From assembly GCA_000091205.1 (NCBI GenBank), contig AP006491.2: a stretch of DNA of 64,000 bases; one strand, 5' to 3'. The position numbers and the translations under genes were made by a program. Source of the DNA: Cyanidioschyzon merolae (Eukaryota). Of this stretch, positions 5,350-30,898 are shown piece after piece. The first letter of the stretch is position 1; every line of letters starts with the position of its first letter. The notes below the pieces were generated by a model, which saw only the letters and a program-made list of their open reading frames with translations, did not search any database and had not been told where the DNA came from.

Positions 5350-5782
5350 GTGCAGTAATGCAAAGACAACACGAGCAACCAAGGTTACCTCGGTTGCGCT
5401 TCAAGGCGCCTCAGCGTCTACCGTACCAAAGACTGCAACGGAAACCGGGAGCAATGAAGGAATGAATTCCGTTGAGCGATCAACTTGCGACATAGATGTA
5501 CAGAACGTACAAGAGCAATCTGGGTGTCGGACACGTCTCCTTCATCGAGCGGGGAGGCGTCTCGCGCAGTGCACGCATCGCTCTCGGTGAGCGTATACCT
5601 GGGAAATCAGGCAGTCAACTGACACGATGCGTACGCCGTTGAAGCGAAACGCGATCCTGATCAGTAGGGTGTTGTTGAACCGGAAAAAGTTGGATTTCAA
5701 TTCAGGTCGTAGCCAAGTACAGTTTTTCACTTCGTATTTGTTTCAACCTTCAAACAAGTCTAGACAAGTGTTTTTTCGCAGT

Positions 5783-5790
5783 ATATAACA
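5783..5790 (+). promoter_or_regulatory. TATA-like box (TATATAAC) about 210 bp upstream of the element ATG
   Basis: The context cgcagtatataacagaagcgtt is conserved in copy B at 15154-15161 as catataac. It is degraded in copy C. Confidence 0.35.
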
Positions 5791-5998
5791 GAAGCGTTCA
5801 AAGAGCGTTCTTTTTCAAAAAAAAACCTAAAAAAGGAAAGCTTTGAGAAAGCAAGCTGACGATCCTGGAGGGCTAGGGTCGCCGGCCGCTAGAGACAAAC
5901 AAAAAGCAGTGCCGAGTCCAGAAGAAAAGGAAGAGAAGAAGAACCGAAAGCGGGAGGCCCTACGTCGGAGGCGGCAAGAAACATGACTGTAGAACGAG

Positions 5999-8193
5999 AT
6001 GGAGGTGAAAACCTTTCTTCTTGGACATATCAAGGATCCCTACAGGGAAAAGTTGCGAGAAACTATCGAAAAACGTGTCGACTCGTACTCCAAGAGTATT
6101 GCCAAGGCGTCGTCAGGACTGATGCATATGGCGAGGGAGATGTATCGCGACGTAACGCACATCGAAACGGTCGAGATTCCAGACGAGCTTTTCGACAAGA
6201 CCTTTATTCGTCACTTGATGCTTGGCGCAGAGAAAGCGCCGAGGGAAAATGTGCTAGTGCATGCCCTCCACGAAAAACATCCCTTTTAGAGCTTCGACGG
6301 TACTCGATACACAATTGACTGGTGCATTTACACATACGGAGCGATGAAGTACATCACGAACCTGAAGAACCATTTGACTATGAACCTCGAACGCTTCATG
6401 ATACGCGCCGTGTTTGCGCTGTACCCTGGCATCGCTCGCAAAGGAAAATGGGCGATTACCAATGGCGTCACGAACGATCGCAAGCATGAAGATGCTATCG
6501 AGCTCGTCGACAACAAGACATCACGTAAGCGAAAGAATGAAGCTTCTGTAATCCGTGCGGCCATACACGAGTACCGTACAGTCTTGGGGTTGGCAAATCC
6601 GACAGACAAGATATCAGAGTTGAAAAAATATAAGGAATGGTACTATCGCCTCGTCCTGCGCTATTTTGTGTTTCTGGACCGAGAACTCGAACGCAAGGCA
6701 GAGGCGAGGCTGAGTGAGGAAAAAAATGAAGAGTGGGAGAGACGGAAGGCTTTCCTAATGGGTAAGCGCTTCAACGTCGTTCCAACGTGCAAGATCAAGT
6801 GACATTTGTGACTATCGACTCTAGAATCCTTCACGCCATCATGAAGGAGATCAGTCCGGAGTTCAGTGTCAGCAAGGAGAAGTTCTCCGGTGAAAACCGG
6901 GAGAGGTACTGGAAAAATATCTTCGATTTCAAACGCTTGAGAGTGAGCAAGGAAACGTTGTTCACCGGGATGTTTGAAACCGATGGAGTAGCCTAGTGTG
7001 TACACTATCGGCGGTTCAAGAAAGATCGTCCTGGTCCGCCGTCGGCTGTGCCCGTGACGAAGGATGAAGAAAAGAATGAGGCGGATCCTGCGACGCAGGA
7101 GGTGGAGGAGAACGAACTTATCTTTGACGCGGCGAATCATGAAGATGAGGAGGAGGCGGATCCTGTGACGCAGGAGGTGGAGGAGAACGACCTTGTCGTT
7201 GACGTGGCGAAGCATGAAGGAAAGAAGGAGGCGGATCCTACAATGCAGAAAGTGCAGGAGAACGACTTTGTCGTTGGTGTGGACCCTGGAAATACGAATA
7301 TCATAACCATCGCAGCACCCAAGCGCGCGGAAGATGGTGCTGATGGTAACTTGCGTCGGAAAGACATGCGTCTTTTGAGGTTCTCAAGAGCTAGATATTA
7401 CTGAGAATCCGGTGTAATGAATGCAAGGAAGAAAACCGAGAAATGGAATTCAGGAATGAAAGATCACCTAAAAGCTTTGAGCGAGGTGACGAGCCGAGGA
7501 ACCGACTTTGAAACTTTTCGGAAATTCATGGAAGATCGGTTTGCGCATTGGGATGCGCTGTGGGAGGAGTATACCATGCCCCGGTGGGCTTGTTTGCGTA
7601 TGAATTTGTATTGTGGGAAGCAGCGGGCGTTCGCCAACTTCTTCAATCAGTTGAGCGCCTTGAAGGAGGACCAGAGTCAGAGGCTTGTAGTAGCGTATGG
7701 GGCAGGCCGCTGGAAGACCCAAAAAGGAACTATGCCACCTCCAACGACAAGAACGCACAAGGAGTGCGCACAACGTCTCGTTACGATACCTGTAGACGAG
7801 TTCCGAACATCCTATACACACCATGAACTGGGATGTACACTTCAGAAAGTGGAGATGGAAAAGTGTTAGCGGAGCCCTGAAGACATAGCAAAGTACGGTC
7901 CTTTGACGGAAGAGGAAACGGAAAGGAGACCGAAAGTTCGAGGGCTACTCGCATAAGTGAATACAACTAACGGGAAGAAACCGATGGAACTCGTGAACCG
8001 GGACTTAAATGCCGCTATCAATATCCGAAAATGTGCGATGCTGGAGACGAGACCTCCAGAATGGACAAGAGAGAACTTTGTTGGACAACCTCTTGAAGTC
8101 GAACTATATGAGAGAAAGTTTGAAGCAGTAGTCGGTGGCCGGTCCAAAAAGACGGGTAGGCGTCTGCACGTCAGTTGGAGACGTCTTGTCTAG
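5999..8193 (+). pseudogene. TnpB/Fanzor-like RNA-guided nuclease homolog, copy A (RuvC-I, TS/zinc-finger block and RuvC-III present; several premature stops)
   Basis: MEVKTF...HEKHPF is followed by a stop. In-frame TGA codons occur at SRARYY*ESG (7399) and EMEKC*R (7867) where copy C has sense codons. [17 protein letters not shown] is at 7260-7330. [17 protein letters not shown] is near 7790. VNRDLNAAINIRK is near 8000. Confidence 0.75.
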
Positions 8194-8280
8194 GGCGGCC
8201 CGGACGCCACTACTGTACACGGTCGGCTTCGTTCGAGTTCAGAACGACGTTTGGCTGTGGTGTTGAATGTCGAGCGCCGA
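8194..8280 (+). other. Conserved structured 3' non-coding tail of the element; candidate fRNA/omegaRNA scaffold
   Basis: The tail is conserved in all four copies immediately after the nuclease stop. Its sequence is gtxgtgggtxgccggtcgaaaaagacxgggaggcgtctgcacgtcagxtggagacgtxxtgtctagggcg...gccactactgtacacggccxgcgtcgttcgactt. It contains a GCGTCT...AGACGC hairpin. Homology between copies ends about 40 nt past cgttcgactt. Confidence 0.4.
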
Positions 8281-10780
8281 TCAGCCTCCGACCCAGTCTC
8301 GAGAGCAAAACTGGTCTCAGGTCTCGAGCACTGTCGTCGAAGTTGCCCACACAGTGGACGTTCACGTTCAACCCGTGTGCTTCGTCGATCTGAGCGAGGA
8401 AATTCACGCCTTCGCGCAGCTAGAAAAGTTTGCGAAGTGTGAATCATCCGAAGTTATCATAGATCTTAATGTCCGAAATACACATCAAGCTGTTGGGGCC
8501 CTCGTTCGCTGTCTGGAGGAGCGCGGAAAGTTGCCAGCTCACTCCGGAGACTTGCTACGGCGGCAGCTCCTTGGCGCAGAGCCACCGTCACTCTTTCAAC
8601 TTGCACAGCAGGGGCTTCATATGTCTAGTGGGGGAGACGTACTCGGCCACGCTTCTGGATACTGGACACATAGCATACAGGGGCCCTCTTTTATTATTGG
8701 GTATACCGAAACCCCTTTGTTGCTTAGTGACGAGGAAGCAGTAGCAGTTGCACGGCTCGCACACCCGCTCAACGCTGGGGCACTCAACAACTCGCTGACA
8801 CGCTTCCTAGTACTTGTACTGACGCTTGCGCACGATACACCCCAGGTTCGCCGGGCGTCCGAAATGGCACGCGTTTTCGCTTCGCTTTTCGCAGATGAAG
8901 TATTCTACGACGAAGCTGTCGAGGCGTCCGATAGAGCTTCTTTCCTGGAGGCTATCCATCGTTTCCTTGAACGGCAACGGGACGCTGCACGAGAACGCGA
9001 AGCGCTGCATCGAAGCGTTCGATTGGCGACAGCAGCCACGGTGACTTTCTTCGATGATGATAATCATGTTGATGGTGATGGCGTTGCGGAGTATCTTGGT
9101 GGTACAGATGGCGGTACCCTTTCTGGGTGCAGAACAAAAGATGTGACTATTAACGACAATTTTGGTATCATGAACGCTCGCCTCGACCGATACTTCAAAG
9201 CACAAGGATATTCGAATCTGGATACGGTGCCACGCTGGAAGTACTGGTTGGCGCTGTTCTTTCGCTTTCCGGGGGTATTGATGGCTGCAGATCTTCGCCG
9301 CCGTCTACCCCATTATCGATCCGACTGGACAGCGGAATGGAACAAGATTCACGCTCTCGGAAAGTATTTCTTCGCGAGTATTTTTCTCATATTTACAGTC
9401 ACGTTGCCTGCGATTGTTTTCGGCGTTATAGCGAGTCGCACGACTCACGGAGAGATTGGTGTCATCGAGTGTCTGTTTGCCCAGGGTGTACTGGGCATTG
9501 GTTTTGCGTTCTTCAGCGCCCAGCCGCTGATGGTGAATATGGTCACTGGTCCCACCATCGTCTACATTCAAGTGCTCTATCGCTGGTCCCAGAGGCTCGG
9601 GTTCGCATTTCTCCCCTTTTTCGGATGGACGGGTATTTGGATGGGCATTTTTGTGATGTCGTATGCGATCATGAATACGTCAACACTCATACCGTACCTT
9701 GGCCGATTCACTGATGAGATTTTCCAAACCTTTATTGGAATCATTTTTATTCAATATTGGTTTACGGAATTTGTCCGAGTTACGCACACCGGTTACGAAC
9801 AGGTCCTTTTATTCTTGGTGCTTTCTCTGGGAACGCTTCTGCTTGCGTTACTTCTGGTGTCTGTACGAGGCAGTTTCCTGCTACGCCCCATACTGCGATC
9901 CATTCTGGGGGACATCGGCCCCGCTCTCTCTGTTTTCATTTGGACCGGTCTGTCGTACGCGTTCGATCCGATTGATGTGCCTCGTCTGCAGATACCGGGC
10001 TCTGTTGGTTACAGCACAACGACTGGACGACCGTGGATTGTCCCCCTAGGAAGTCTATCCGTCGGCTATGTATTTTTGGCCATCGTTCCCGGCTGGCTGC
10101 TCTCGCTCATCGTCTACATTGATCAACAGGTGTGTACTTATATCGTGGAACGACCGGAAAATCGCTTGCGCAAAGGCACTGGGTACAGTTGGAATCTTTT
10201 TGTGACTGGCGCTCTTGCCGTTCTTGCCTCGATTCTCGGCATACCTTGGATGTATGCAGGGCTGCCACACTCGCTTTTGCACGTTTATGCACTTGCTGAA
10301 ATTGAGGACATAGAGCTCATGGGAAGACGATGGATACGTGTTCTTCGTGCGCGGGAGGTGCGCATTGCTGCACTAAGCGCTTACCTCTTTGCCTTGTTGA
10401 TCATTCTGGCCAAACCAGCTCTAGATCAGCTGCCGATCTATGTGTTGTACGGCTTTATTCTGTACATGGGTGCAGCTTCATTTCTGAACAACCCTCTCTG
10501 GGATCGATTCGTTCTCTTGTTTACGCAGCCAACCAAGTACCCACCGACACATTATGTTCGACGTGTCCCCATGAGTCACCTGCACCTCTACACCTCTGTT
10601 CAGGTAATCCTTACAGTCGTTCTCTTTTTTGTCGCGGTCAATTTTTATCGAGGTGCAACTCTATTCAATACTGGCCTCATCTTTCCATTGGTCCTGTTCC
10701 TTTTCGTCCCATTCAAGTGGATGGTGTTGTATCGCTGGTTTCCGCGACGTGAGCTGCGCGTGCTTGAAAATCAGCTTTAG
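8267..10780 (+). CDS. SLC4/Band-3 family anion exchanger (bicarbonate transporter-like)
   Basis: An 837-aa ORF. FSAQPLMVNMVTGPTIVY matches the GQPLLV..SGP..VF motif. FTDEIFQTFIGIIFI matches YTQEIFSFLISLIFI of AE1. There are 10 or more hydrophobic segments after a hydrophilic N-terminal domain of about 330 aa. The ATG at 8267 lies inside the conserved 3' tail of element copy A. Confidence 0.85.
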   Translation: MSSADQPPTQSREQNWSQVSSTVVEVAHTVDVHVQPVCFVDLSEEIHAFAQLEKFAKCESSEVIIDLNVRNTHQAVGALVRCLEERGKLPAHSGDLLRRQLLGAEPPSLFQLAQQGLHMSSGGDVLGHASGYWTHSIQGPSFIIGYTETPLLLSDEEAVAVARLAHPLNAGALNNSLTRFLVLVLTLAHDTPQVRRASEMARVFASLFADEVFYDEAVEASDRASFLEAIHRFLERQRDAAREREALHRSVRLATAATVTFFDDDNHVDGDGVAEYLGGTDGGTLSGCRTKDVTINDNFGIMNARLDRYFKAQGYSNLDTVPRWKYWLALFFRFPGVLMAADLRRRLPHYRSDWTAEWNKIHALGKYFFASIFLIFTVTLPAIVFGVIASRTTHGEIGVIECLFAQGVLGIGFAFFSAQPLMVNMVTGPTIVYIQVLYRWSQRLGFAFLPFFGWTGIWMGIFVMSYAIMNTSTLIPYLGRFTDEIFQTFIGIIFIQYWFTEFVRVTHTGYEQVLLFLVLSLGTLLLALLLVSVRGSFLLRPILRSILGDIGPALSVFIWTGLSYAFDPIDVPRLQIPGSVGYSTTTGRPWIVPLGSLSVGYVFLAIVPGWLLSLIVYIDQQVCTYIVERPENRLRKGTGYSWNLFVTGALAVLASILGIPWMYAGLPHSLLHVYALAEIEDIELMGRRWIRVLRAREVRIAALSAYLFALLIILAKPALDQLPIYVLYGFILYMGAASFLNNPLWDRFVLLFTQPTKYPPTHYVRRVPMSHLHLYTSVQVILTVVLFFVAVNFYRGATLFNTGLIFPLVLFLFVPFKWMVLYRWFPRRELRVLENQL

Positions 10781-12451
10781 ATGGAAATTTCTGATCGAGT
10801 CTTGGGAGTTTTCCAGTAAAATTGGCCATCGCAGATTGATAGATAGACTGTAGAGTCGGAAATCGTGTTTACATTTCATCGAAGCGCAAATTGCTGGGGC
10901 AGGCATGTATCAGCAGAGGCCCTTTTTGCGAGTACGGGAGGTAGGTGCTTTCCTGATGCGAGGCCGAGATCTCGAGTCCAAAGTGATCCGCTGATGCTTG
11001 CTTTTCCAGAGGTAGAGACTCCCTTTGCCGGAACTGGTCGTGATTTGTACCCACAACCGGTACGGAAGGCACGTCAGTGAAGAGATTCGCTACGACTATA
11101 CGCGGTATCATACGATTATGCTGCGGAGATCTCGGATACGAGAGCCGAAATACAACACGTGGCGCTGATAAAAACAACCCGCTTGATTGCATGCGACTTG
11201 TTGGACATTCGGGAACAAGGCGGTTCATTTTGGAACGCCCATGCCAGCATACCTTCTTTGTTTATGTTTGTTATTCTCGCTGGTATTCGCGAATCGACCG
11301 TGTCGCATAGATTGGAAATGAGCCGTGGAAAGAGTACATGCTGTTATCATCGGACAACGTCATACGAGATTACAAGTGAAACACAGTGATTCTAGGGTCA
11401 TCAAACGGATGAACGAGTTTTTCGTTGTACTTATCTTGACCCTCCTACACCCAAAACTAAACACAGAAATATCGCCTACAAGACTGTGTCCGGGTTCATC
11501 CTTTTCTTTGCATGCGACCTCGAAGAGAGACTACAATCACCTACAGGGTGTGAATGGTCCACATCGTTGATTCGGACAGCGATCAAGGGACACAGACGGA
11601 CAGAAGTAAGGCATTATTTATTGCAGACCGCCACGCTCCGAACAGGGCAAAATCGAATTCATACTCAAACGCACGCGTATCTCTCGGGAGAAAGAGGTAT
11701 GGATCTCGAATGGTGAAGTTCTAGTCAAGAGAAATACTATTCTTGAATATGGGTACTCGGAGGTTAAGCGTAAACCCCTGATCGTAAAAGAGACAGCGCG
11801 CAACCTGACAACATCGGTCTTACCAGTTTCCAAGTACATCGTGTGCTGGGAATCGCGGAACTTGCAGCATAACTCAATGACACATGTTCCTTCCGAGTAC
11901 TTCGCAATGCCTCCTTCACAAAACCATAGAACCCGATCGTCGATGACGTCGGTCTCCATCACATAGAAGCGGACGGAAAATACGCAGCTGATATTGGCAG
12001 CTGTTGCTATTTGGTCCTTCCCATTCTATCTGGACAAAATCAGCAACTGGGATCTTCTCTGCAGTCAGACGATGATCGTGTATACACAGATCACTTAGAG
12101 AGTTGTTCGAGTTCGTGAAATTGAACTTCTTTGATAAAACCTTCCTCGACATATCGGTGACCTACTTTACCAGCTCATAGCCACCGTCATCTTCCTCGTA
12201 CATATGAAGGAGGAGGAAGAAAGGCGAGCGCCAAACTGTAGGCGTGCTCGCGACGGCAAGACTGGATTGATTTACTAGAAGAAGTAACTTTCGTCGCACG
12301 GTCCATCCCGCACAAACGACTCCTTTTGGAAACAAATGCATCCACAGTAAGCTGGCCACTGCCAAGCACTCCTTCGGTGTGGATGAAAAACGGTGTAACG
12401 GGAAGGATGAGAAGCAACGGGAAAGAAAGGAAGAGAATCCTCCAGGAAGAC

Positions 12452-13660
12452 GACCAAGGAGGACTTGGGGCAAAAGCTGTCGGAGCGGAAACATCTTTCA
12501 GGAACCATCGTCAAGGCCTCCGTCCTACAAATTACCATCAGGAATAATCTCCCACACAACGAAATGCTCAACATCGTTCCCGATCGCGTGGCTTCCGTCT
12601 CGACGCAAGGTAAACCCAGTTTCCCGCTCCACGATGCATGTCGCCGAGCAGGTGTTCGTACCAGTCTCGGACGCAGAGCTGCTAGCAGCCGGGATTCCTC
12701 GGGAGCTTTTCGATCTCGGCTTTGTGCCATAACACAATGGATGCTCGGGACGGAAGACGCAGTGCGGTCCGAGTACAGGATCAGGGAGATACGCGCACAC
12801 ACACACATTACCCAGACTTGGTTGACGCTTCACTGCACAATGTTGACGATCGGAACATCTGCACTGCAGGCGGCCATAACACTATCAAACCGACCACTGC
12901 AATCAAGTCCATACGCCTGCCAAATGACGAGCGCTCCATGCAGCGCACCCTGTAGGCGTTCTATTCTCACGCTGGCGGCCCCGGTGAGTTGGTACTGACA
13001 CCAAAAAAGAATCTTCGCCTCTGCGCATACACGAGCGTCCATATCGCCCAGGCGGACAATCCGTGGCACGAATCCATGCGACAGTGGTGGTGCTGCCAAA
13101 AGATTCCATTCGACGGAGGCAGGTCTCTTGCATTCACCAACTTGTCCAATGCACTGAAAAGATAAGTGACCGAAAAGCCGTTTTGTTTTCCGGTGGTAAC
13201 CCGCGTCGCTGGACGTTCTGTGGCGAGCCATGGAGACGCCCATGTCCCTTCGACGAACGCACGCCGCAAGTGCATTGCTCCATGCCGAACGAATCCCATC
13301 GATGCATCCAGGGCGCCATCCAGGTATGTTGAGCACGGGCGCGCATGCACGAAGCTACAGAAGAAGGGCTTGAAATACATCCAGATGAACGAGATGGCGT
13401 GCGTCTCGCTGACTTGACGGAGATACGGATGCCTCGATCGGCATCCGAAAAGGACCCCTGCGATTCGGGAGCGTCCATCGTTTCTTTTTTTCTGCCGGAG
13501 GATATTTCCAGTTGATCTATTGACGACGCAGTGCGCCGTTGTTCGGCAGAGCGGAATGCTTCTGATCCAAAGAAATCAATGCCAAAGATACAACGCATTT
13601 GATTCCGGTCTGGAGAAATGCACTGGTATTGTATGAGCTGCAACCCAGGAGGTCTTGAGC
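12452..13660. repeat. Dispersed repeat, copy 1 of 2 (about 1.2 kb; second copy at 47486-48700, direct orientation, roughly 97 percent identical by eye)
   Basis: The ORF-track proteins are near-identical, 12465 MGQKLSERKHLSG... and 47509 MGQKLSERKHLSG.... The nucleotide match runs from cgaccaaggaggacttgg to tgtatgagctgcaacccag. An internal (CA)n is present. No recognisable domain. Confidence 0.8.
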
Positions 13661-14967
13661 GCCGTACGTTTGCACTGGAAGTAATGCTTCCAGGCAAAAA
13701 GTAGAAGATATTGCTGTCCTATGGTTCGCTATTATTGACTAGTAAGTAAGAGCAGTACGGCTTCATTTGATCCAAAAGTGAAATCGACCACCGATAGGAT
13801 TGTGACAAGCGTCAATTGAGACGAAGAGCGCTCCTATAGCACGATAGACTCTATGACAGTTGCTACATAACAAACACGGATGCTCCTGCATTCAGCGTAT
13901 ATGTCGTGCAACTCCATGCTTCAATGTGTCCAGTCATGGTCGGCCGTTTGCGAGCGTGACAGTCCACGTCCACTCAGAGAAGCAGTTCTCCTCGAGAGTC
14001 AACGTAGGCACAGCGTTGGGGTCCACCTGATAGTAGCGTCTCACAACTGATACCAGCGTGATTAGGTGGCTTAACGGCACGATACGTTTATCCTAAAAAA
14101 TAAAACATCCCAGCAATACGACAGTCAGTGCATTGCTTTCTTCGGGAAGACGACTCGTCTATTGTTAGGCAACGTTGCGGTACGACACGCATCTCACCGG
14201 ACACGTAGGAGAAGGCGTATATCAGCAAGAGGGATCCTACTCGTCCCCCAGTATCCATTCGCATTCCAGAATGCTATCGGAAAGAAGGAACCGACGAGCG
14301 CCGCCGATCACACTGCTGGAGTATCACAGGGGCATATCATACTAGGTGTCCCTATTACGGCAATAAGCTCCTGAGCAAACCTTCTGCAACCATAACACAA
14401 ATTCTGAAATGCTCTCCCTATTTTGGATGACGTCCGAAGGCTCTATCCGTAACGTCCAGGATGGCACCTGTGCCTGAAACTCGCCCTGCTCCACCTACTG
14501 AGCGCACGTGGACCTGAAGGCGCACAGGAAAGAGCACCATACGCATCTGCTGCCTACATTGCCGAGTGAATCGTAAGACACCACGACCAAGAAAAGCGTT
14601 TATACACAGTACGCACCAACGCATGCCATCCCCCTCTGATCCGTCTGGAGTTGCCGGACGCACGCTTCACAGTCGCAACTAGCCGGCTGTCCCATGAGCG
14701 AGGTTCAGCTACAGATCCACCCATAACAGATTCGATGTCCCTGCTCGCCTCCTAACGTCCGACACTGCTCCCAGAAGCGAAGCGCCTCATTCGCACAAAC
14801 GCGTGCTTAAACGGCAACGTCCCTACCGTACGCAAGAACCGCGCCCGTACAACCCGCATCACTTGAACTGAAGCAGCGATACCTACAGTTCCCGATGCGT
14901 ACAGCGCTCGTCACGCCCGGGGCGCTTGGCGATGTGGCTTGCAGGGCAGAGAGCGTGGGCGAGCGCG

Positions 14968-17535
14968 CCTGGGAAATCGCGCAGTCAACTGACACGATGC
15001 GCGTGCCGCCGATGAAGGGAAACGTTGTCGTGATCAGTTACGTGTTGTTCTGCTGTAAACATCGGATTTCTGTTGAGGCCATAGCAAAATACAGTCTTTC
15101 GGTTCGGTTTTGTTTCAAACTTCAACCAAGTCTAGTAAAGTGCTTTCTCGCAGCATATAACAGAAGCGTTCATTGAGGGTTCTTTAAAAAACGAAAAACG
15201 GAAAGCTATGAAAAACCAGTCGACGATCCTGGAGGGCTAGGGTCGCCAGCCGCTAGAGACAAACAAAAAGCAGTGCCGAGTCCAGAAGAAAAGGAAGAAA
15301 AGAAGAACCGAAAGCGGGAGGCCCTACGTCGGAGGCGGCAAGAAACATGACTGTAGAACGAGATGGAGGTGAAAACCTTTCTTCTTGGACGTATAAAGGA
15401 TCCCTACAGGGAAAAGTTGCGAGAATCTATCGAAAAACGTGTCGACTCGTACTCCAAGAGTATTGTCAATGCGTCGTCAGGACTGATGCATATGGCGAGG
15501 GAGATGTATCGCGACGTAACGCACATCGAAACGGTCGAGATTCCAGACGAGTTTTTCGACAAGACGTTTATTCGTCACTTGATGCTTGGCACACAGAATG
15601 CACGGATGGAAAATGAGCGAATGCATGCCCTCCACGAAAAACATCCCTTTTACAGCTTCAATGGTACTCGATACAAGGGTGACCGGGATGTTTACGACTA
15701 TGGGGCGATGAAGTACCTCACGAACCTGAAGAACCATTTGACAGAGAACCTCGAACGTTCCATGATACGCGCCGTGGTTGCACTCCACCCGGGCCTGTCT
15801 CGCCAAGGAAAATGGGCGATTATCATAGGCATCACCAAAGATCGCAAGCATGAAGATGAGATCGAACTCGTCGACAAGAAGACATCACGTAAGAGAAAGA
15901 ATGAAGCTTCTGACATCCGTGCGGCCATACAAGAGTACCGTGCAGTCTTGGGGTTGGCAAATACGACAGACAAGATATCAGAGTTGAAAAAAGATAAGGA
16001 ATGATACTATCGCCTCATCCTGCGCTATTTTGTGTTTCTGGACCGAGAACTCGAACGCAAGGCAGAGGCGAGGCTGAGTGGGGAAAAAATGAAGAGTGGG
16101 AGAGACGGAAGCCTTTCCTAATGGGTAAGCGCTTCGACGTGGTTCCAATGTGCAAGATCAAGTCACATTTGTGACTATCGTCTCCGGCGTCCTTTACGGC
16201 ATCATGAAGGAGATCAGTCCGGAGTTCAGCGTTAACAGGGAGGAATTCACCTGTGAAAACCGGGAGACGTACTGGAAGAATATCCTCAATTTCAAACGTC
16301 TCAAAGTCAGCGCGAAAAAGAAATTCACTGGGATGCTCGAAACCGATGGAGCAACCATTTGTGTACACTATCGGCGGTTAAAGAAAGATCGTCCAGTCCC
16401 GCCCTCGGCTGAGTTCTCTGCGAAACATGAAGAAAACAAAGAAGCGAATCCTGAGACGCACAAATTGCAGGATGACGACCTTGTCGTTGGCGCGGTGAGG
16501 CATGAAGAATAGAAGGAGGCAGATCTTGCGACGCAGGAGGTGCAGGATAACGAACTTGTCGTTCCTGCGGACCCGGGGAATACAAATATCATAACCATCG
16601 TTGTGCCCAAGCATGCGGAAGATGGTACTGACGGCAACTTACGTCAGAAAGACACGCGTGTGTTGAGATTCTCGAGAGCGAGAAATTATCGAGAATCCGG
16701 TATAATGAATGCGAGGAAGAAAATCGAGACTTGGGATGCAGGAATGAAGGATCAAATGGAAGCTTTGAGCGAGTTGACTAGCCGACGAACGGACGTTGAA
16801 GCTTTTCGGAAATTCATGGAAGTTCGCATTGCGCATTGGGATGCGCGGTGGGAGGAGTATACAAAGCCCCGGTGGGCTCGTCTGCGTATGAATTTCTACT
16901 GTGGCAATCAGCGGGCGTTCGCGAATTTTTTTTAATAAGTTGAGCGCCTTGAAGGAGAATGAAAGTCAGAGGCTCGTAGTAGCGTACGGAGCAGGACGTT
17001 GGGCGTCGAGAAAAGGGACTACACCAGCTCCAACGACAAGGGTGTACAAAGAGTTCGCAAGGCATTTCGTTACGATACCTGTATTTGAGTTCCGAACATC
17101 GTATACACACCATGAGCTGGGTTGTATACTCCAGAGAGTCGAGATGGAAAAGTGCCTGCGGAGTCCTGAAGATATACAAAAGCACGTACCGCTGACGGAG
17201 GTGCAACTGGAAAGGAGGGCGAAAGTGCGAGGGCCTCTCGCATTAGTAAGTACAGCCAATGATGGCAAGAAACGTATGGAGTGTGTGAACCCAGATTTTA
17301 ATGCCGCTATCAATACAGGAAAAAGTGCGGTGCTGGAGAAAAGATCTCCAGAGTGGACAAGAGGGAACTTTATTGGACAACCTCTCAAAGTTGCACTATA
17401 TAAGAAGAAGTTGTAAGCAGTACTAGGTGACCGGTCCAAAAAGAAGGGGTGGCGTCTGCCCTTACTTGGAGATGTTTCGTCTAGGGCGCGGTTACAGCCA
17501 CTACTCTACAGCTGGCGACAGCGTTTTTTCTTTTG
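14968..17535 (+). mobile_element. Copy B of the TnpB/Fanzor-like repeated element
   Basis: Same 5' boundary and leader, with the TATA-like box at 15154. The N-terminal ORF 15363-16004 is uninterrupted over 213 aa. The conserved 3' tail is more diverged. Confidence 0.8.
15363..17416 (+). pseudogene. TnpB/Fanzor-like nuclease homolog, copy B (nonsense at KDKE*, frameshifts, RuvC-III NRD changed to NPD)
   Basis: TGA replaces TGG at about 16003. RuvC-I is [16 protein letters not shown]. The TS block is IPVFEFRTSYTHHELGC. RuvC-III is VNPDFNAAINTGK. Confidence 0.7.
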
Positions 17536-19491: not shown

Positions 19492-22400
19492 TCAAATGAT
19501 GTTCTGCACGTGTTGAATTCGAGGAACGACATAGAACCAACGACCGAATGCCGTCATATTCATCCCATTGTTCGTGCTAGATAGACCGCCGCTGCCACTG
19601 GTGCCTGAACCAGAAGTTCCGCTGCTGCTACCACTACCGTTGTCACTGGTGCCTGAACCAGAAGTTCCGCTGCTGCTACCACTGCCGGTGTAACTGGTGC
19701 CTGAACCAGGAGTTCCGCTGTTGCTACCACTGCTTGTGTCACTGGTGCCTGAGCCCAAATTCCCGGCTCTGCTGCTACTGCTGCTGACAGGGATAGCGGA
19801 TGTCTGCTCGATGATCCTATCCGGGCCTGAAGATGAAGTAGTTGGAGCATCGATACCTGTTCCAGGGCGGGGTGTTGACCCTAGACTGCTAAAAGTTGGC
19901 GGACTTATCGTGGTACGCATCGCTGGTGCGACTGCCCCCAGTGTGGATGAATGCGAGTTACGTTCTCCGCCGGGTTCCACATTGTCTAAAAAGGAGCCGC
20001 CAGAAGTGCTCGTTGTAATAACCGGAGTAAAGGGCGGTGGTAGTGTTGCCGTGGTCGCCACAGGTAGAGTGCTTACAGAGAGCGATGAGGCCTGTGATGA
20101 TGAGGGGGTCATCGACATCGCATTCATCTTAGCGATGTACGGAGATGGTGTGGGATGAACAACAGCTGGAGTAACCGTTGCAGTTGCTCTTGGAGCGCTT
20201 TCGGCACTATGGGTGCTGTTCCGCTCAGGTTCAGCAAAAAAGGCCTCAGAGACGCCAGACGATGCCGTGCCATTCGAGGTTGACGTACCCGCCTGGACGC
20301 ATACGCAAAGGTCGCCAAGGCAGACCTTGGCCAGGTTACCAGAACAGCTGCCGGTGGTCGTTACGCACCCGCAGATACCTCCCAATAGACATGTGTAGAC
20401 GACTCCTCCGGGGCACGTGGGAACCGAAGTAGACGAGGCCGTACTCGTCGATGTAGACGTCGACGTAGGCTGCGAAAATGACGGTGACGGTGTCGGTGTC
20501 CCCGCTTCAACACAAACGCACGTATCACCGACACACAACTTGACGAGGTTCCCAGGGCAGCTTCCGCTCGTTGTCACGCACCCACAGATATCACCCAACA
20601 GGCAGGTGTAGACGAGTCCGTCAGGGCAGGAAGCCGTCGTTGTTGGTGAACTCGTGCTCGTCGTTGTTGGTGAACTCGTGCTCGTCGTTGTTGGTGAACT
20701 CGTGCTCGTCGTTGTTGGTGACGTTGGCGACGGTGTCGGTGTTCCCGCCTCGACGCATACGCAGAGGTCGCCAAGGCAGACCTTGGCCAGGTTACCAGAA
20801 CAGCTGCCGGTGGTCGTTACGCACCCGCAGATACCTCCCAATAGACATGTGTAGACGACTCCTCCGGGGCACGTGGGAACCGAAGTAGACGAGGCCGTAC
20901 TCGTCGATGTAGACGTCGACGTAGGCTGCGAAAATGACGGTGACGGTGTCGGTGTCCCCGCTTCAACACAAACGCACGTATCACCGACACACAACTTGAC
21001 GAGGTTCCCAGGGCAGCTTCCGCTCGTTGTCACGCACCCACAGATATCACCCAACAGGCAGGTGTAGACGAGTCCGTCAGGGCAGGAAGCCGTCGTTGTT
21101 GGTGAACTCGTGCTCGTCGTTGTTGGTGAACTCGTGCTCGTCGTTGTTGGTGACGTTGGCGACGGTGTCGGTGTTCCCGCCTCGACGCATACGCAGAGGT
21201 CGCCAAGGCAGACCTTGGCCAGGTTACCAGAACAGCTGCCGGTGGTCGTTACGCACCCGCAGATATCTCCCAATAGACATGTGTAGACGACTCCTCCGGG
21301 GCACGTGGGAACCGAAGTAGACGAGGCCGTACTCGTCGATGTAGACGTCGACGTAGGCTGCGAAAATGACGGTGACGGTGTCGGTGTCCCCGCTTCAACA
21401 CAAACGCACGTATCACCGACACACAACTTGACGAGGTTCCCAGGGCAGCTTCCGCTCGTTGTCACGCACCCACAGATATCACCCAACAGGCAGGTGTAGA
21501 CGAGTCCGTCAGGGCAGGAAGCCGTCGTTGTTGGTGAACTCGTGCTCGTCGTTGTTGGTGAACTCGTGCTCGTCGTTGTTGGTGAACTCGTGCTCGTCGT
21601 TGTTGGTGAACTCGTGCTCGTCGTTGTTGGTGACGTTGGCGACGGTGTCGGTGTTCCCGCCTCGACGCATACGCAGAGGTCGCCAAGGCAGACCTTGGCC
21701 AGGTTACCAGAACAGCTGCCGGTGGTCGTTACGCACCCGCAGATATCTCCCAATAGACATGTGTAGACGACTCCTCCGGGGCACGTGGGAACCGAAGTAG
21801 ACGAGGCCGTACTCGTCGATGTAGACGTCGACGTAGGCTGCGAAAATGACGGTGACGGTGTCGGTGTCCCCGCTTCAACACAAACGCACGTATCACCGAC
21901 ACACAACTTGACGAGGTTCCCAGGGCAGCTTCCGCTCGTTGTCACGCACCCACAGATATCACCCAACAGGCAGGTGTAGACGAGTCCGTCAGGGCAGGAA
22001 GCCGTCGTTGTTGGTGAACTCGTGCTCGTCGTTGTTGGTGAACTCGTGCTCGTCGTTGTTGGTGAACTCGTGCTCGTCGTTGTTGGTGACGTTGGCGACG
22101 GTGTCGGTGTTCCCGCCTCGACGCATACGCAGAGGTCGCCAAGGCAGACCTTGGCCAGGTTACCAGAACAGCTGCCGGTGGTCGTTACGCACCCGCAGAT
22201 ATCTCCCAATAGACATGTGTAGACGACTCCTCCGGGGCACGTGGGAACCGAAGTAGACGAGGCCGTACTCGTCGATGTAGACGTCGACGTAGGCTGCGAA
22301 AATGACGGTGACGGTGTCGGTGTCCCCGCTTCAACACAAACGCACGTATCACCGACACACAACTTGACGAGGTTCCCAGGGCAGCTTCCGCTCGTTGTCA

Positions 22401-23553
22401 CGCACCCACAGATATCACCCAACAGGCAGGTGTAGACGAGTCCGTCAGGGCAGGAAGCCGTCGTTGTTGGTGAACTCGTGCTCGTCGTTGTTGGTGAACT
22501 CGTGCTCGTCGTTGTTGGTGAACTCGTGCTCGTCGTTGTTGGTGAACTCGTGCTCGTCGGCTTTTGGGTGGGCCTTGTGGTGCTTGTAGCGATCGAAGTT
22601 GGTTTCGATGTGGTGGATATGTTTGATACTGTAGTTGCGCTCAATACAGGACTTCTTACAGGTATCAACGTCGAGACTACGGTGATTAATGCTGTTGCAG
22701 ATGTTGAGACAACAGCGGTCCTTGAAGGCGGTACAGTAATTGTTTGCACCACCGTTGGTTCATGACTTGTTACAACCGGTGTTGGCGGTAGCGTCCGATG
22801 TACTGTTTGTGGCGGAGTTTGGGCCATATGGCTCTTCGTCGCCTCTGGAAATGGAGTCTGTTGAATTGGACGGGGCGTCTGAATAGGGAAAACCTCTACA
22901 CTACACGTTTCCGAGAGCAGCTTGCACTCATATGTGCAAAACTCGCCTAGAACTATGGAAGTCGACGTAGTGGATTCTTCACCATACGAAGACGTCCACT
23001 TTCTGCTTGTTTTCCAATCTAACTCATTCTGTCGTTGAACATTCCCTTTTTCATATACCGCTGTAGAAGACTTTGGACATATTTGCAGAGCCTCAAACTT
23101 TTGCACGCAAACCTTGCATGTGTTTTGGTATTTGTACTCCACACAAACTTCTACTGATTTGAAAACACATTCCTTCCTACATTTTTGAATATTTTTCTGC
23201 GGTGCTGCGTCTTCGAAAGTTGTGTCTGAGGTCCAACGACGTCTCCAAGTCACTTTTCCGTTCCAGGGACCACCATACTCGGGACTCTTTGTCTCAGGCG
23301 CTGCTGTTGTACAGACGATATTTTCTTTCGCACAGACCAATATATTTTCATACGCTGCGCACGTCTTTACTAAGCTACACGGCCCGACCACGGTCTCCGG
23401 CTCGCAGAACTGCCATCTTAGCCCGGAGCTCGTAAGCGATCTACTCTCTCCATCAGTTTTGATCGGTGAGCTCGCCTCTGTGGAGACGGTCAACAGTATC
23501 GCTTGTGCGATCGTAATACAGAGAATCACAGATAAAGTCCGCGTGAACTTCAT
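19492..23553 (-). CDS. Secreted mucin-like Ser/Thr/Pro-rich cell-surface glycoprotein with tandem Cys-rich repeats
   Basis: A 1353-aa ORF with a true ATG. The N-terminal signal peptide is MKFTRTLSVILCITIAQAILLTVSTEA. A Cys-rich N-terminal module follows. About five tandem units of roughly 150 aa each carry two 8-Cys modules (CPDGLVYTCLLGDICGCVTTSGSCPGNLVKLCVGDTCVCVEAG), separated by SPTTTSTS runs. The C-terminus is a Ser/Gly-rich 20-aa periodic tail. Confidence 0.8.
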   Translation of the reverse strand: MKFTRTLSVILCITIAQAILLTVSTEASSPIKTDGESRSLTSSGLRWQFCEPETVVGPCSLVKTCAAYENILVCAKENIVCTTAAPETKSPEYGGPWNGKVTWRRRWTSDTTFEDAAPQKNIQKCRKECVFKSVEVCVEYKYQNTCKVCVQKFEALQICPKSSTAVYEKGNVQRQNELDWKTSRKWTSSYGEESTTSTSIVLGEFCTYECKLLSETCSVEVFPIQTPRPIQQTPFPEATKSHMAQTPPQTVHRTLPPTPVVTSHEPTVVQTITVPPSRTAVVSTSATALITVVSTLIPVRSPVLSATTVSNISTTSKPTSIATSTTRPTQKPTSTSSPTTTSTSSPTTTSTSSPTTTSTSSPTTTASCPDGLVYTCLLGDICGCVTTSGSCPGNLVKLCVGDTCVCVEAGTPTPSPSFSQPTSTSTSTSTASSTSVPTCPGGVVYTCLLGDICGCVTTTGSCSGNLAKVCLGDLCVCVEAGTPTPSPTSPTTTSTSSPTTTSTSSPTTTSTSSPTTTASCPDGLVYTCLLGDICGCVTTSGSCPGNLVKLCVGDTCVCVEAGTPTPSPSFSQPTSTSTSTSTASSTSVPTCPGGVVYTCLLGDICGCVTTTGSCSGNLAKVCLGDLCVCVEAGTPTPSPTSPTTTSTSSPTTTSTSSPTTTSTSSPTTTSTSSPTTTASCPDGLVYTCLLGDICGCVTTSGSCPGNLVKLCVGDTCVCVEAGTPTPSPSFSQPTSTSTSTSTASSTSVPTCPGGVVYTCLLGDICGCVTTTGSCSGNLAKVCLGDLCVCVEAGTPTPSPTSPTTTSTSSPTTTSTSSPTTTASCPDGLVYTCLLGDICGCVTTSGSCPGNLVKLCVGDTCVCVEAGTPTPSPSFSQPTSTSTSTSTASSTSVPTCPGGVVYTCLLGGICGCVTTTGSCSGNLAKVCLGDLCVCVEAGTPTPSPTSPTTTSTSSPTTTSTSSPTTTSTSSPTTTASCPDGLVYTCLLGDICGCVTTSGSCPGNLVKLCVGDTCVCVEAGTPTPSPSFSQPTSTSTSTSTASSTSVPTCPGGVVYTCLLGGICGCVTTTGSCSGNLAKVCLGDLCVCVQAGTSTSNGTASSGVSEAFFAEPERNSTHSAESAPRATATVTPAVVHPTPSPYIAKMNAMSMTPSSSQASSLSVSTLPVATTATLPPPFTPVITTSTSGGSFLDNVEPGGERNSHSSTLGAVAPAMRTTISPPTFSSLGSTPRPGTGIDAPTTSSSGPDRIIEQTSAIPVSSSSSRAGNLGSGTSDTSSGSNSGTPGSGTSYTGSGSSSGTSGSGTSDNGSGSSSGTSGSGTSGSGGLSSTNNGMNMTAFGRWFYVVPRIQHVQNII
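19560..19800. repeat. 60-bp periodic repeat encoding the Ser/Gly-rich C-terminal tail of the mucin-like protein
   Basis: The 60-bp unit ggtgcctgaaccagaagttccgctgctgctaccactaccgttgtcactggtgcctgaaccagaagttcc is repeated. Confidence 0.7.
20180..22560. repeat. Coding tandem array, period 432-480 bp, about 5 units, with a nested 24-bp minisatellite (ggtgaactcgtgctcgtcgttgtt, 2-4 copies per unit)
   Basis: Identical antisense ORFs recur at 20417, 20873, 21305, 21785 and 22241. Unit length varies with the 24-bp copy number. Confidence 0.9.
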
Positions 23554-27689: not shown

Positions 27690-28200
27690 CTCACACGGCT
27701 CGTGGGACCTTCCGCCTAAGCGGTAAACGTACAAAGATACGGGAACTATTCCCCCCTTCAACGCTTACTATCAAGGTCGAGCGAAACGATTGTCGAGTTG
27801 CGAGTCAGTGGTTAGTTTCCGTTCTTTCGGCAACGTGTCGTGATTCGTTATCATTCTCGGAGCCTGCAAGCTGTACAGACAGACCAATTGCCTTCAGCAG
27901 CGCGAAGCGATATACAAGGAGTCATCTTCGACCAGTGCGACGCACACTTGCAGCATACCCGCTCCTGGTCCCAGAAAAATCTGTTTTTCGGACGAGTAGC
28001 TCAGATCTCAACGCAGCATCTGCCAATGCAAAGTCCCACGGAGCGCAAGCCCCGCAGGCTCGTCCGGCTCGCGGGACCTTCTGCCTGAAAGGTAGGCTTT
28101 CTAACATACGGAAATACTTTTCCCCTTTCAACGTTTGTTGTAGAGAGGGAACGAAATCGTTATATCGTTGCTGGTGAATTGTGAGTCTCTGTTCTTTGTT
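27690..28200. repeat. Two copies of a roughly 140-bp segment about 360 bp apart, upstream of element copy C
   Basis: The segment at 27700-27830 is cggctcgtgggaccttccgcctaagcggtaaacg...gttagtttccgttctttcgg. The segment at 28060-28200 is cggctcgcgggaccttctgcctgaaaggtaggc...gagtctctgttctttgtt. Confidence 0.6.
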
Positions 28201-28619
28201 TTAAATAGCGCTGTCGATTTGCGCACCTGGGAGATCTGGTAAGCACGTGGCACGACTCAAATGCCGCACTTCAAGGAATACGAAATCGTGGCAGCATCTG
28301 TTCTTGTTGCTGTACCGTACAAGTTGTATTTGCGTTGCAGTCACACAAAAGTATAATTTTTCAGTTCATTCATGTTTCATACCTCAAACAAATGTATTCT
28401 AGTGTTTTTGTGCAGTACATAGCAGAAGCGTTTAGTGAGCCTTCTTTCCCAAAGAAACTAAAAGAGGGAAGTTATGAAATTGCGACTCGACGATCCTGGA
28501 GGCCCAAGGTCGCCAGCTGCTAGAAAAAAACAAAAAACAGTGCCGAGTCCAGAAGAAAAGGAAGAGAAAAAGAAGTAAAAAGGGAAGGCCCGACGCCAAT
28601 GCTTGCAAGAAAGACAACT

Positions 28620-30898
28620 GTACGACGAGAAGATGGTGAAAACTTTCCTTCTTAGACATATCATGGATCCCTACAGGGAAAGTTGCGAGAAGCTATCAAA
28701 AAACGTATCGAGTCGTACTCCTTGAGGATTATGAAGGTTTTCTCAGAAGTAATGCATTTGGTGAAGGAGATGTGTCGCGACGTGACGCACATGGAAACGG
28801 TCGAGATTCCGGACAAGTTTTTCGATACGACCTTTATTCGTCACCGGATGCTTGGTACAGAGGAAGCGCGGAAGAAAACGAGCAGGTTCTTGAACTGCAC
28901 GAAAAACATCCTTTTTACAGCTTTGAGGGTACTCGATACAAGGGTGACCGGGATATTTACATGTACGCGGCGATGAAGTACATCACAAACCTGAGGAACA
29001 ATTTGACAATGAACCCGGAACGTTTCATGATCCGCGCAGTGGTTGCACTCTATACGGCGCCTATCTCACAATGGAAAATGGGCAATTATCAAAGGTACCA
29101 CGAAAGGTCGCAAACGTGAAGACGAGATCGAACTCGTCGACAAGAAGACATCACGTAAGAGAAAGAATGAAGCTTCTGTTATCCGTGCGGCCATACACGA
29201 GAACCGTGCAGTCTTGGGGTTGGCAAATCCGACAGACAAGATATCAGAGTTAAAAAAGATAAGGAAAGATACTATCGCCTCGTGCTGCGCTATTTTGTGT
29301 TTCTGGACCGAGAACTCGGACGCAAGGCGGAGATGAAGCTGAGTGAGGAGAAAAATGAAGAGTGGGAGAGACGGAAGGCTGTCCTAATGGGTAAGCGTTT
29401 CGACGTGGTTCCAATGTGCAAGATCAAGTCACATTTGTGACTATCGACTCTAGAATCCTTCACGCCATCATGAAGGAGATCAGTCCGGAGTTCAGCGTCA
29501 ACAGGGAGGAATACTCCAGTGAAAACCAGGAGACGTACTGGAAGAATATCTTCAATTTCAAACGCCTCAAAGTGAGCAAACAAAAGGTATTCACTGGGTT
29601 GAACGAAACCGATGGAGTAGCCTTGTCTATACACTATCGGCGGTTGAAGAAAGAACGGCCAGTCCCGCCCTCGGCTGCGCCCGTGACGAAGGAAGAAAAA
29701 AACAAAAAGAGGATCCTGCGACGCAGGTGGTGGAGGATAACGAGTTTGTGGTTGACGTGGCGAAGGATAGGGATGAGAAGGAGGCGGATTCTGCGACGCA
29801 GGAGGTGCAAGATAATGACCTTGTCGTCGACGCTGCGAGGCATGAAGATGAGAAGAAGGCGGATCCTGTGATGCAGGAGGTGGAGGGGAACGACCTTGTC
29901 GTTCGCGCGACGAAGCATCAAGAAAACGAGAAGGCGGGTTCTGAGAAGAGGAGGTGCAGGATAACGACTTTGTCGTTGGCGTGGACCCTGGGAATACGAA
30001 TATCATAACCATCGCTGCTCCCAAGCGTGCGGAAGATGGTACTGACGGCAACTTACGTCAGAAAGACATGCGTGTTTTGAGGTTCTCGAGAGCGAGATAC
30101 TATCGAGAATCCGGTATAATGAATGCGAGGAAGAAAATCGAGACTTGGAATTCAGGAATGAAAGAGCACCTGGAAGCTATGAGCGAGTTGACGAGCCCCG
30201 GAGCGGATTATGAAGCTTTTCGGAAATTCATGGATGTTCGTGTTGCCCATTGGGATGCAGTGTGGGAGGAGTATAAAAAGCCCCGGTGCGCTCGTTTGCG
30301 AATGAATCTATACGGTGGGAAGCAGCGGGCGCTCGCGAACTTTTTCATTCAGTTGAGTGCCCTCAAAGAGGATCAAAGTCAGAGGCTAGTAGTATCGTAT
30401 GGGGCAGGGCGCTGGGCGTCGAAGAAAGGGACTACGCCAGCTCCTACGACGAGGGTGTACAAATATTGTGCATGGCGTTTCGTTATGATACCTGTAGACG
30501 AGTTCCGAACGTCATATGCACACCATGAACTGGGATGTACACTTCAGAGAGTGGAGATAGAAAAGTGTCAACGGAGCCCTGAGGAAATCGCAAAGTACGG
30601 ACCGCTAACAGAAGAGCCAATGGAAGGGAGGGCGAAAGTTCGAGGACTACTCGCACTGGTGAGCACAAAGAACGATGGCAAGAAACGTATGGAATTCGTG
30701 AACCGAGACTTTCACGCCGCTATCAATATCAGGAGATATGCGGTGCTGGAGAACAAACCTCCAGAGTGGACAAGAAAAACCTTTGTTGGACAACCCCTCA
30801 AAGTCGAACTATATGAGAAAAAGTTTGAAGCAGTCGTGGGTAGCCGGTCGAAAAAGACAGGGAGGCGTCTGCACGTCACCTGGAGACGCAATGTCTAG
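28620..30898 (+). pseudogene. Full-length TnpB/Fanzor-like gene copy C with 1-nt indels in the acidic-repeat region
   Basis: The frame is lost at [14 protein letters not shown], where copy A reads [15 protein letters not shown]. It is lost again at [14 protein letters not shown] before [13 protein letters not shown]. Confidence 0.6.
29954..30898 (+). CDS. TnpB/Fanzor-like RuvC nuclease core ORF (314 aa, uninterrupted in this copy); the upstream part of the same protein is frameshifted in the acidic repeat
   Basis: RuvC-I is [49 protein letters not shown] and [28 protein letters not shown] align to the TnpB wedge, YKae and V.P.YTSq.C blocks. RuvC-III is [17 protein letters not shown]. The C-terminal tail is basic. 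Confidence 0.7.

Follow-up and report, generated by a model that had tools for sequence, protein, structure and literature searches.

Pseudogenized Fanzor1 repeats at a chromosome end of Cyanidioschyzon merolae: partly shared decay after selection on the protein

Four related elements at a chromosome end

The first 64,000 nt of an 810,151-bp chromosome of the red alga Cyanidioschyzon merolae 10D (contig AP006491.2, positions 1-64000, its left end; hereafter, the window) contain four related copies of one 2.2-2.7 kb element, all on the plus strand and denoted here A, B, C and D. As argued below, these units most probably are pseudogenized interspersed repeats of the Fanzor1 family that first diverged under selection on the encoded protein and subsequently lost the reading frame, in a decay that was only partly independent. 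The boundaries of the copies were derived from comparison of the window with itself using blastn and MAFFT. The homology between the copies extends over 1154-3344 (D), 5598-8259 (A), 14968-17510 (B) and 28305-30944 (C); it starts approximately 250 nt upstream of the true start codon and stops approximately 70 nt past the stop codon, and the flanks are unrelated. An earlier reading of the DNA, made from the letters alone (the sequence-only reading), had placed all copies within 5999-30898, a range that misses copy D (1154-3347). Its recognition of a decaying multi-copy family is borne out, given that every copy carries lesions and that the copies, set in unrelated flanks, are 17-42% apart.

For comparison, a scan of metagenome contigs yielded 374 relatives, in metagenomes holding Cyanidioschyzon-like DNA; the best 80 of these 374 loci were kept, and collapsing sequences less than 3% apart left 52 distinct copies, the four window copies included. 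The majority consensus of the 52 copies is open from an ATG (MKKQVDDPGG...) through the motif PVTKDEEK and then again in the C-terminal part up to WRRFV and the stop codon; the intervening acidic-repeat segment aligned poorly and was patched. The copies lie about 10-12% from this consensus. In the 52-copy consensus, the open reading frame (ORF) starts 53 codons upstream of the ATG at 5999 that had been taken for the start, and both the closest relative, P0001, and distant homologues also carry the resulting basic N-terminal extension. The majority consensus of copies A-D retains a frameshift and is not open because A, B and C have a deletion in common and A and B have stops in common (see below). 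Thus, the expectation that a majority-rule consensus would give one open gene fails for the four window copies and holds for the roughly 52-copy consensus outside the acidic-repeat segment.

Assignment to Fanzor1

The frame-corrected translation carries the motifs VGxDPGNTN, VDEFRTS and NRDFNAAINI. In a large protein database, the family has 49 relatives, of which the best, P0001, consists of 752 aa and shows 78% identity; distant intact relatives of 650-676 aa have an ATG start and basic N-termini. The sole PDB match of a profile of 13 homologues is the Fanzor1 of Guillardia theta (GtFz1; 9CER; E = 1.6e-5), and the profile alignment spans the DPG, DEF-TS and NRD-NAA motifs. The homologues carry the precomputed Pfam domain PF26935 (DUF8286), and 4 of the 13 match PF07282, the Cas12f1-like TNB domain. 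With the AlphaFold model of P0001 (predicted local distance difference test, pLDDT, 75; predicted template modeling score, pTM, 0.69) as the query, the top seven Foldseek matches are all Fanzor1 proteins (SpuFz, PpFz and GtFz; E = 4.6e-15 to 5.7e-12; target TM-scores 0.50-0.69), and the matches to Cas12 and Fanzor2 have E values of 0.02 or worse. Judged by profile and modeled fold, the family is Fanzor1. The 52-copy consensus, P0001 and copies A, B and C all have the D-E-D catalytic triad, which copy D has lost at RuvC-I and RuvC-III. The acidic repeat, with a unit of 75 nt (25 aa), is predicted to be disordered (pLDDT < 50 for residues 375-471 of the P0001 model).

The best candidate for a live member is P0001 itself (locus L001, 10001-12259, and also L004), which has 752 open codons and all catalytic motifs; a Met lies internally at MVVKTF, and the frame is cut short by a stop 35 codons ahead of the usual end. 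No fully intact copy is present among the 52 distinct ones, and in cluster look-ups the family clusters contained none of the C. merolae proteins annotated by NCBI. No transposase was detected among the ORFs scanned against Pfam, a scan that included no search aimed at transposases; the ORF of Fanzor and TnpB elements is not a transposase.

Private and shared lesions

Scored against the 52-copy consensus, copy A has 8 stops, 1 frameshift and a lost start codon; copy B, 5 stops and 5 frameshifts; copy C, 1 stop and 7 frameshifts; and copy D, 11 stops and 14 frameshifts (Table 1). The C-terminal RuvC half of copy C (29957-30898) is free of lesions, and each of the 52 distinct copies carries at least one (median 6). 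All the lesions that the sequence-only reading had named exist at their positions, but its lists were far too short; moreover, the NRD to NPD change in copy B, although real, is a missense replacement that leaves the catalytic Asp in place.

Many lesions are private to a single copy; others are held in common, contrary to the claim that the lesions do not overlap. A one-T deletion at codon 321, between KSHF and VTIDS (CATTTTGTG to CATTTGTG), is common to A (6805), B (16168) and C (29434) and is found also in the close counterparts of copy A, L049, L050 and L052 (see below); beyond these, it occurs in only one further distinct copy, L072, whereas about 45 copies, as well as D, are in frame at this point. 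A TGA at codon 48 together with a TAG at codon 50 is common to A, B, L011, L049 and L052, and the codon 50 stop is present in L007 as well. Codon 266 is AGA in 45 of the 52 copies, TGA in B, L049 and L052, and TGG in the 10D copy A, which indicates that the ancestor of A and B had a stop here that later changed from TGA to TGG in A; accordingly, the nonsense codon KDKE* of copy B, previously taken for a TGG to TGA mutation, is ancestral to A and B, and it is the TGG of copy A that is derived. The A and B lineages thus had three stops in common, at codons 48, 50 and 266. In addition, the TAG at 6287 of copy A recurs in L007, L011 and L052, and the codon-3 deletion of copy B recurs in L011.

The same nonsense codon is also observed in five or six copies that are not closely related, at codons 149 and 266 of the N-terminal part and codon 205 of the C-terminal part. 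This recurrence suggests that dead copies convert one another ectopically or that the codons are mutational hot spots.

Divergence and mosaicism

Kimura two-parameter (K2P) distances are 0.171 for A-B, 0.198 for A-C and 0.201 for B-C, and about 0.42 between D and all others; A is 0.038 from L049 and 0.058 from L052. The neighbor-joining tree is star-like, with bootstrap support of 99% for A+B and 89% for A+B+C+L007+L011. Along their length, the copies are mosaic: A and B are 0.046 apart at 5875-6275, and at the 5′ end B and L011 are separated by 0.008; around the common deletion, at 6476-6874, the distances among A, B and C are all about 0.08; and the 3′ halves of A, B and C are 0.17-0.25 apart, no nearer to each other than random family members. 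This pattern points to the exchange or separate inheritance of modules, whether by recombination, by gene conversion or by propagation of dead modules.

The three counterparts of copy A, L049, L050 and L052, are collinear with window positions 2997-11190 at 96.5-99.5% identity (L049, 98.3%; L052, 96.5%) and represent either orthologues in other strains or paralogous subtelomeric blocks. They hold most of the lesions of copy A, with the exception of a new TGA in 10D, at 6800. Given that most of these lesions are already present in counterparts 2-4% diverged and that the one at 6800 is new, the decay is old and still continuing. In L052 (contig Ga0080006_1131325), collinearity at 96.5% identity covers window positions 2997-8236, and comparison of its positions 5213-5290 with window positions 8206-8262 shows that divergence begins within the last ~30 nt of the 3′ tail of copy A; two of the stops of copy A, as well as the stop codon of copy A, are missing from the RuvC half of L052. 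At this break, either two copies have recombined or a duplicated subtelomeric block ends.

Table 1. Position of the telomere repeat unit, the four Fanzor1 copies, their parts and their lesions in the window
Feature	Position	Strand	Remarks
Telomere repeat unit	1..9		CCCCCCATT, complement of AATGGGGGG
Copy D	1154-3347	+	most degraded, oldest; 5′-truncated, begins near codon 26
Copy D, RuvC-I	2357-2383	+	Asp to Lys
Copy D, RuvC-III	3081-3107	+	Asp to Gly
Copy D, stop codon	3279	+	changed to TCG
Copy D, 3′ tail	3282-3347	+	matches the RNA model at 3278-3347
Copy A	~5526-8262	+	ORF remnant 5843-8193; 5′ homology to other family members from ~5526
Copy A, start codon	5843	+	ATG to TTG
Copy A, stops	5984, 5990, 6287, 6800, 6994, 7402, 7867, 7954	+	6287, TAG, HEKHPF*; 6800, TGA; 7402, TGA, SRARYY*; 7867, TAG, EMEKC*
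Copy A, frameshift	6805	+	1-nt deletion common to A/B/C
Copy A, acidic repeat	7075-7254	+	3 units; between the PVTKDEEK motif and RuvC-I
Copy A, D/E/D catalytic triad	7273-7299, 7792-7812, 7993-8019	+	retained
Copy A, in-frame deletion	7968	+	3 nt
Copy A, 3′ tail	8194-8262	+	conserved, non-coding; directly after the stop
Copy B	14968-17555	+	ORF remnant 15208-17484
Copy B, stops	15348, 15354, 16002, 17414	+	16002, TGA, KDKE*; a further TAG in the acidic repeat
Copy B, frameshifts	15216, 16085, 16168, 16926, 17460	+	16085, 1-nt deletion; 16168, common to A/B/C; 16926, +1
Copy B, acidic repeat	16438-16542	+	2 units; contains TAG
Copy B, RuvC-III	17285-17311	+	NRD to NPD, Arg-to-Pro missense; catalytic Asp retained
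Copy B, 3′ tail	17485-17555	+	equivalent to that of A
Copy C	28305-30967	+	ORF remnant 28474-30898
Copy C, stop	28576	+	
Copy C, frameshifts	28679, 28873, 29058, 29252, 29434, ~29700, ~29945	+	29058, +1; 29434, common to A/B/C; last two in the acidic repeat
Copy C, acidic repeat	29704-29956	+	4 units; two frameshifts
Copy C, 3′ tail	30899-30967	+	equivalent to that of A

Selection on the protein

The ratio of nonsynonymous to synonymous substitution rates (dN/dS), estimated by the Nei-Gojobori method, is below 1 in all comparisons between the copies, as the sequence-only reading had anticipated. Against the family consensus, dN/dS is 0.25 for A, 0.32 for C, 0.47 for B and 0.55 for D, with a median of 0.37 for 43 near-full-length family copies; pairwise values among A, B and C are 0.33-0.42, and 0.22-0.28 when only the RuvC half is considered (0.28 for A-B in the 3′ half). 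Because a control with pairs of dead copies is confounded by mosaicism, neutral decay was simulated from the consensus with realistic transition and CpG biases, yielding dN/dS of 0.67-0.78 (standard deviation ~0.13; minimum 0.50). Since the values against the consensus, 0.25-0.55, lie below this neutral range, most of the divergence built up on lineages under protein-level selection, which has also been argued by Bao and Jurka (2013; PMC3627910). Conservation at codon positions 1, 2 and 3 of the RuvC half is 0.915, 0.938 and 0.833, respectively, a pattern typical of coding sequence.

Copy A combines the lowest dN/dS of the four with the most nonsense codons (TAG accounts for 5 of the 8). This number exceeds the expectation if only a minority of its substitutions postdate inactivation.

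The 3′ tail and the element ends

The ORF is followed by a conserved tail of about 70 nt in which a first hairpin (GGCG-loop-CGCC), the near-invariant motif GCCACTACTGTACAC and a long terminal hairpin of 10-19 bp follow one another; the outer stem of the terminal hairpin extends into the apparent flank. The GGCG/CGCC stem of hairpin 1 is paired in 93-95% of cells. When the structure was defined by hand on 18 sequences, 77% of the structure cells pair, compared to 33-50% with the partners slid; in a covariance-model alignment of 39 sequences, which was fitted to the structure, the corresponding values are 75% and 33-57%. Among the 39 sequences, compensatory changes occur in 14 pairs, compared to 8.3 +/- 1.6 in shuffles, and none of 500 shuffles reaches 14. 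Conservation is 0.9-1.0 in the stems and the motif and 0.46-0.69 in the first loop. MAFFT misaligned two length variants of the terminal hairpin, which the hand-defined structure and the covariance model handled better. Over positions 1-32000, no Rfam family was matched at the gathering score, and the window contains no solo 3′ tails. By analogy with SpuFz1, the tail is a candidate omega-RNA scaffold or right-end hairpin.

Inspection of the element ends revealed no terminal inverted repeats, and there is no inverted repeat of at least 60 nt in the window. At the 5′ end, the copies differ, with at least two alternative modules in the family. One of these bears the palindrome GGACACGTGTCC (CACGTG core) and is found in L008, L026, L056, L069 and copy A (5526-5600), where the palindrome is imperfect (GGACACGTCTCC); L010, L014, L029 and L060 carry another, A-rich module. 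The existence of alternative 5′ modules agrees with the 2013 report of TE-N2_CMe, a separate 5′ element with which the published C. merolae Fanzor1 family, CMe-1A, has its 5′ 635 bp in common (Bao and Jurka, 2013; PMC3627910).

Origin of the broken copies

Based on the above considerations, the four units are best explained as pseudogenized Fanzor1 interspersed repeats in which selected divergence came first, followed by loss of the frame, with decay only partly independent between copies, a scenario to which we assign a probability of about 0.9. Each unit would once have encoded a protein of approximately 760-800 aa that comprised, in this order, a basic N-terminal extension, REC and WED-like regions, the expandable acidic 25-aa repeat and a split RuvC domain with the D-E-D triad. 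By analogy with SpuFz1, the structured tail after the ORF would likely have been the scaffold of an omega-RNA whose guide came from the DNA beside the element. Given that no transposase was detected in the element, the copies presumably spread by means of a factor acting in trans or through nuclease-triggered homing or recombination. As the dN/dS values show, the long divergence of the lineages took place while the protein was under purifying selection, after which all sampled copies lost the reading frame. Dead modules, such as the 5′ module with the stops at codons 48 and 50 and the segment with the A/B/C deletion, were either inherited or transferred from one copy to another, most likely by recombination or gene conversion.

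Several points weigh against this scenario. The repaired four-copy consensus, searched as a single sequence, has no match in Pfam or PDB, and membership in Fanzor1 rests on the profile and on the fold of a 78%-identical relative, the window copies being too broken to model. With at least two 5′ modules in the family, neither the 5′ end of the element nor a target-site duplication has a defined position. The sharing of lesions may reflect either gene conversion or inheritance from a dead ancestor. As to selection, near-identical or orthologous pairs of dead copies give dN/dS of 0.58-0.65, a baseline below 1 (albeit confounded by mosaicism), and copies B and D are only marginally under the neutral range. 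For the tail, the fitted covariance-model alignment leans towards structure, RNAalifold on the 247-nt 3′ region gives a weak signal (-5.2 kcal/mol; 2 covarying pairs), and the omega-RNA interpretation comes from analogy with SpuFz1.

The sequence-only reading had proposed instead that the copies were recently amplified from an active master and that each then decayed independently, such that a majority consensus restores the gene. Compatible with this proposal are the dN/dS values below 1 between copies, the many single-copy lesions, the 52-copy consensus that is open except for the acidic-repeat segment, the nearly intact P0001 (L001 and L004) and the published statement that some copies still encode intact proteins (Bao and Jurka, 2013; PMC3627910). 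We nevertheless consider it unlikely: A, B and C have a frameshift in common and the A and B lineages have stops in common, which leaves the four-copy consensus frameshifted; the K2P distances are too large for recent amplification, the family having been called 'old' by Bao and Jurka; most lesions of copy A are already found in the slightly diverged counterparts; and none of the 52 distinct copies is lesion-free. Furthermore, an intact ORF would not single out a copy as a 'master', given that it does not encode a transposase, so that the idea of an active master is left unsupported.

Segmental or tandem duplication, within the subtelomere, of a single copy that was already dead would account for the four copies being co-oriented within 31 kb, for the deletion common to A, B and C and the three stops common to the A and B lineages, for the bootstrap support of A+B, and for the near-identical blocks that extend from copy D through the amine oxidase gene to copy A and recur elsewhere with the same lesions (L049, L052). 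Yet the homology ends at the ends of the element, with unrelated flanks beyond; in their 3′ halves, A, B and C show no greater similarity to each other than to any family member; the A/B/C clade also takes in L007 and L011, whose flanks are different; and the A-B dN/dS in the 3′ half is not neutral. The near-identity with common lesions that had been envisaged as the mark of such an event is seen in part, in that some lesions are in common and the copies themselves are 17-42% apart, and duplication of a single dead copy is quite improbable. The possibility that the copies are live genes whose frameshifts are short introns, programmed frameshifts or assembly errors is effectively refuted: the 32-nt GTAAGC...CAAG stretch beside the common deletion could in principle restore the frame, but it encodes residues conserved in intact homologues (P0001, P0041 and P0044), for which reason an intron was rejected here, and, in addition, in-frame nonsense codons lie inside conserved motifs, the same lesions recur in independent metagenome assemblies, and introns are present in only 0.5% of C. 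merolae genes (Nozaki et al., 2007; PMC1955436).

A more speculative extension of the pseudogenized-repeat scenario, which on balance is rather doubtful, holds that the broken copies are not inert: by analogy with the 'ghost' omega-RNA loci, tails under structural constraint might supply guide RNAs in trans to a few near-intact Fanzor1 proteins, such as that of the P0001 locus. In that case, a nuclease-driven homing or recombination system would lie behind the prolonged purifying selection on this ~250-copy family that has no transposase, and could equally underlie the observed transfer of modules between copies, even of dead ones.

Earlier publications already describe the family and its decay, as copies with truncated ORFs in 2007 and as a consensus of an 'old' family in 2013, and taken alone, the present finding matters little. 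What it adds is a correction of the independence of the lesions, some of which are held in common by mosaic copies, a calibrated dN/dS that indicates long-term selection on the protein, and a conserved structured 3′ tail as a ready omega-RNA candidate. With its very small, completely sequenced genome and its amenability to genetics, C. merolae could offer a convenient setting in which to study the function of a Fanzor in its native cell.

Chromosomal context

The telomere unit of C. merolae is AATGGGGGG (Nozaki et al., 2007; PMC1955436); the window starts with CCCCCCATT and encodes proteins matching those of 10D, and therefore is the left end of the chromosome. The ORF at 8267-10780 is identical to BAM79923.1, an anion transporter, for which a paralogue more than 90% identical resides on the 1.62-Mb chromosome, and the ORF at 43164-44543 is identical to BAM79928.1, an L-asparaginase. 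A copper amine oxidase gene is located at 3448-5382 on the minus strand; copper amine oxidase and anion transporter are among the genes listed for subtelomeric blocks (Nozaki et al., 2007; PMC1955436). The telomere unit, the 10D-identical proteins and the eukaryotic neighbors (such as Utp14 and a band-3 type transporter) place the elements in a eukaryotic genome, as expected of Fanzor1, a family of eukaryotic and large-virus genomes. Four Fanzor1 copies in the same orientation within the first 31 kb beside the telomere compare with a genome average of about one per 65 kb (253 copies in 16.5 Mb; Nozaki et al., 2007; PMC1955436), an excess noted post hoc and for this one chromosome end.

Other repeats are present in the window. 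An ORF of 1353 aa on the minus strand (19492-23553), without a Pfam family, is made of five ~456-nt units that are 99% identical, with nested 24-nt repeats and with 48-nt repeats near one end. Tandem arrays are found at 41945-42838 (66-nt unit; about 10 or more units) and at 56267-56479 (three units of 68 nt, inside the span of the Utp14 ORF). A direct repeat of 1.2 kb (12448-13669 and 47492-48717; 97.7% identity) has no Pfam match; its plus-strand translation weakly resembles Fanzor, matching residues 536-647 of the 758-aa family consensus (26-28% identity; E = 7e-5 and 3e-4) across an internal stop. Judging from this similarity, the repeat may be what is left of another, far older family related to Fanzor; only one Fanzor1 family has been given for C. 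merolae (Bao and Jurka, 2013; PMC3627910).

Comparison with known systems

Two published descriptions of C. merolae repeats match the four window units. The sole Fanzor1 family reported for this species, CMe-1A, has ~150 copies, each ~80% identical to a consensus of ~3 kb, with no terminal inverted repeats and with target-site duplications undetermined (Bao and Jurka, 2013; Mob DNA 4:12; PMC3627910). An interspersed element with 253 copies, a mean length of 3.2 kb and ~5% of the genome is transcribed, and all 253 copies have a truncated ORF related to WSV486 of white spot syndrome virus (Nozaki et al., 2007; BMC Biol 5:28; PMC1955436). The window units are CMe-1A and the 253-copy element, an identification made by matching the published descriptions rather than by alignment to the Repbase sequence: the species, the protein family, the unit of ~2.7-3.2 kb, the lack of terminal inverted repeats, the many diverged copies with broken ORFs and the variable 5′ module all agree. 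The copies are ~10-12% from the consensus built here, compared to the ~20% reported; nothing essential differs. Neither the sharing of lesions between copies nor the structured 3′ tail is described in the 2007 or the 2013 paper.

The best structural match is SpuFz1 of Spizellomyces punctatus, likewise a single-ORF element of ~2-3 kb with many full and partial copies and no transposase inside; the counterpart of the 3′ stretch in this system is the omega-RNA, and 'ghost' omega-RNA loci are known (Saito et al., 2023; Nature 620:660). SpuFz1 differs in having 30-nt inverted repeats and many intact genes ~82% identical, whereas the C. merolae element is without inverted repeats and no intact copy was found among the 52 compared here; conversely, the acidic tandem repeat before RuvC-I is a feature of the C. 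merolae element, and solo 3′ tails are missing from the window.

Among prokaryotic elements, the tnpB-only members of the IS200/IS605 group (IS1341-like; ISDra2 TnpB with its omega-RNA) resemble the C. merolae element in the RuvC nuclease ORF, the structured right end, the lack of inverted repeats and, presumably, the dependence of mobility on a factor in trans; we know of no TnpA in C. merolae. In contrast to these elements, the C. merolae element resides in a eukaryotic nuclear genome, and its protein is about twice as long, has a basic N-terminal extension and keeps only two Cys at the zinc-finger position.

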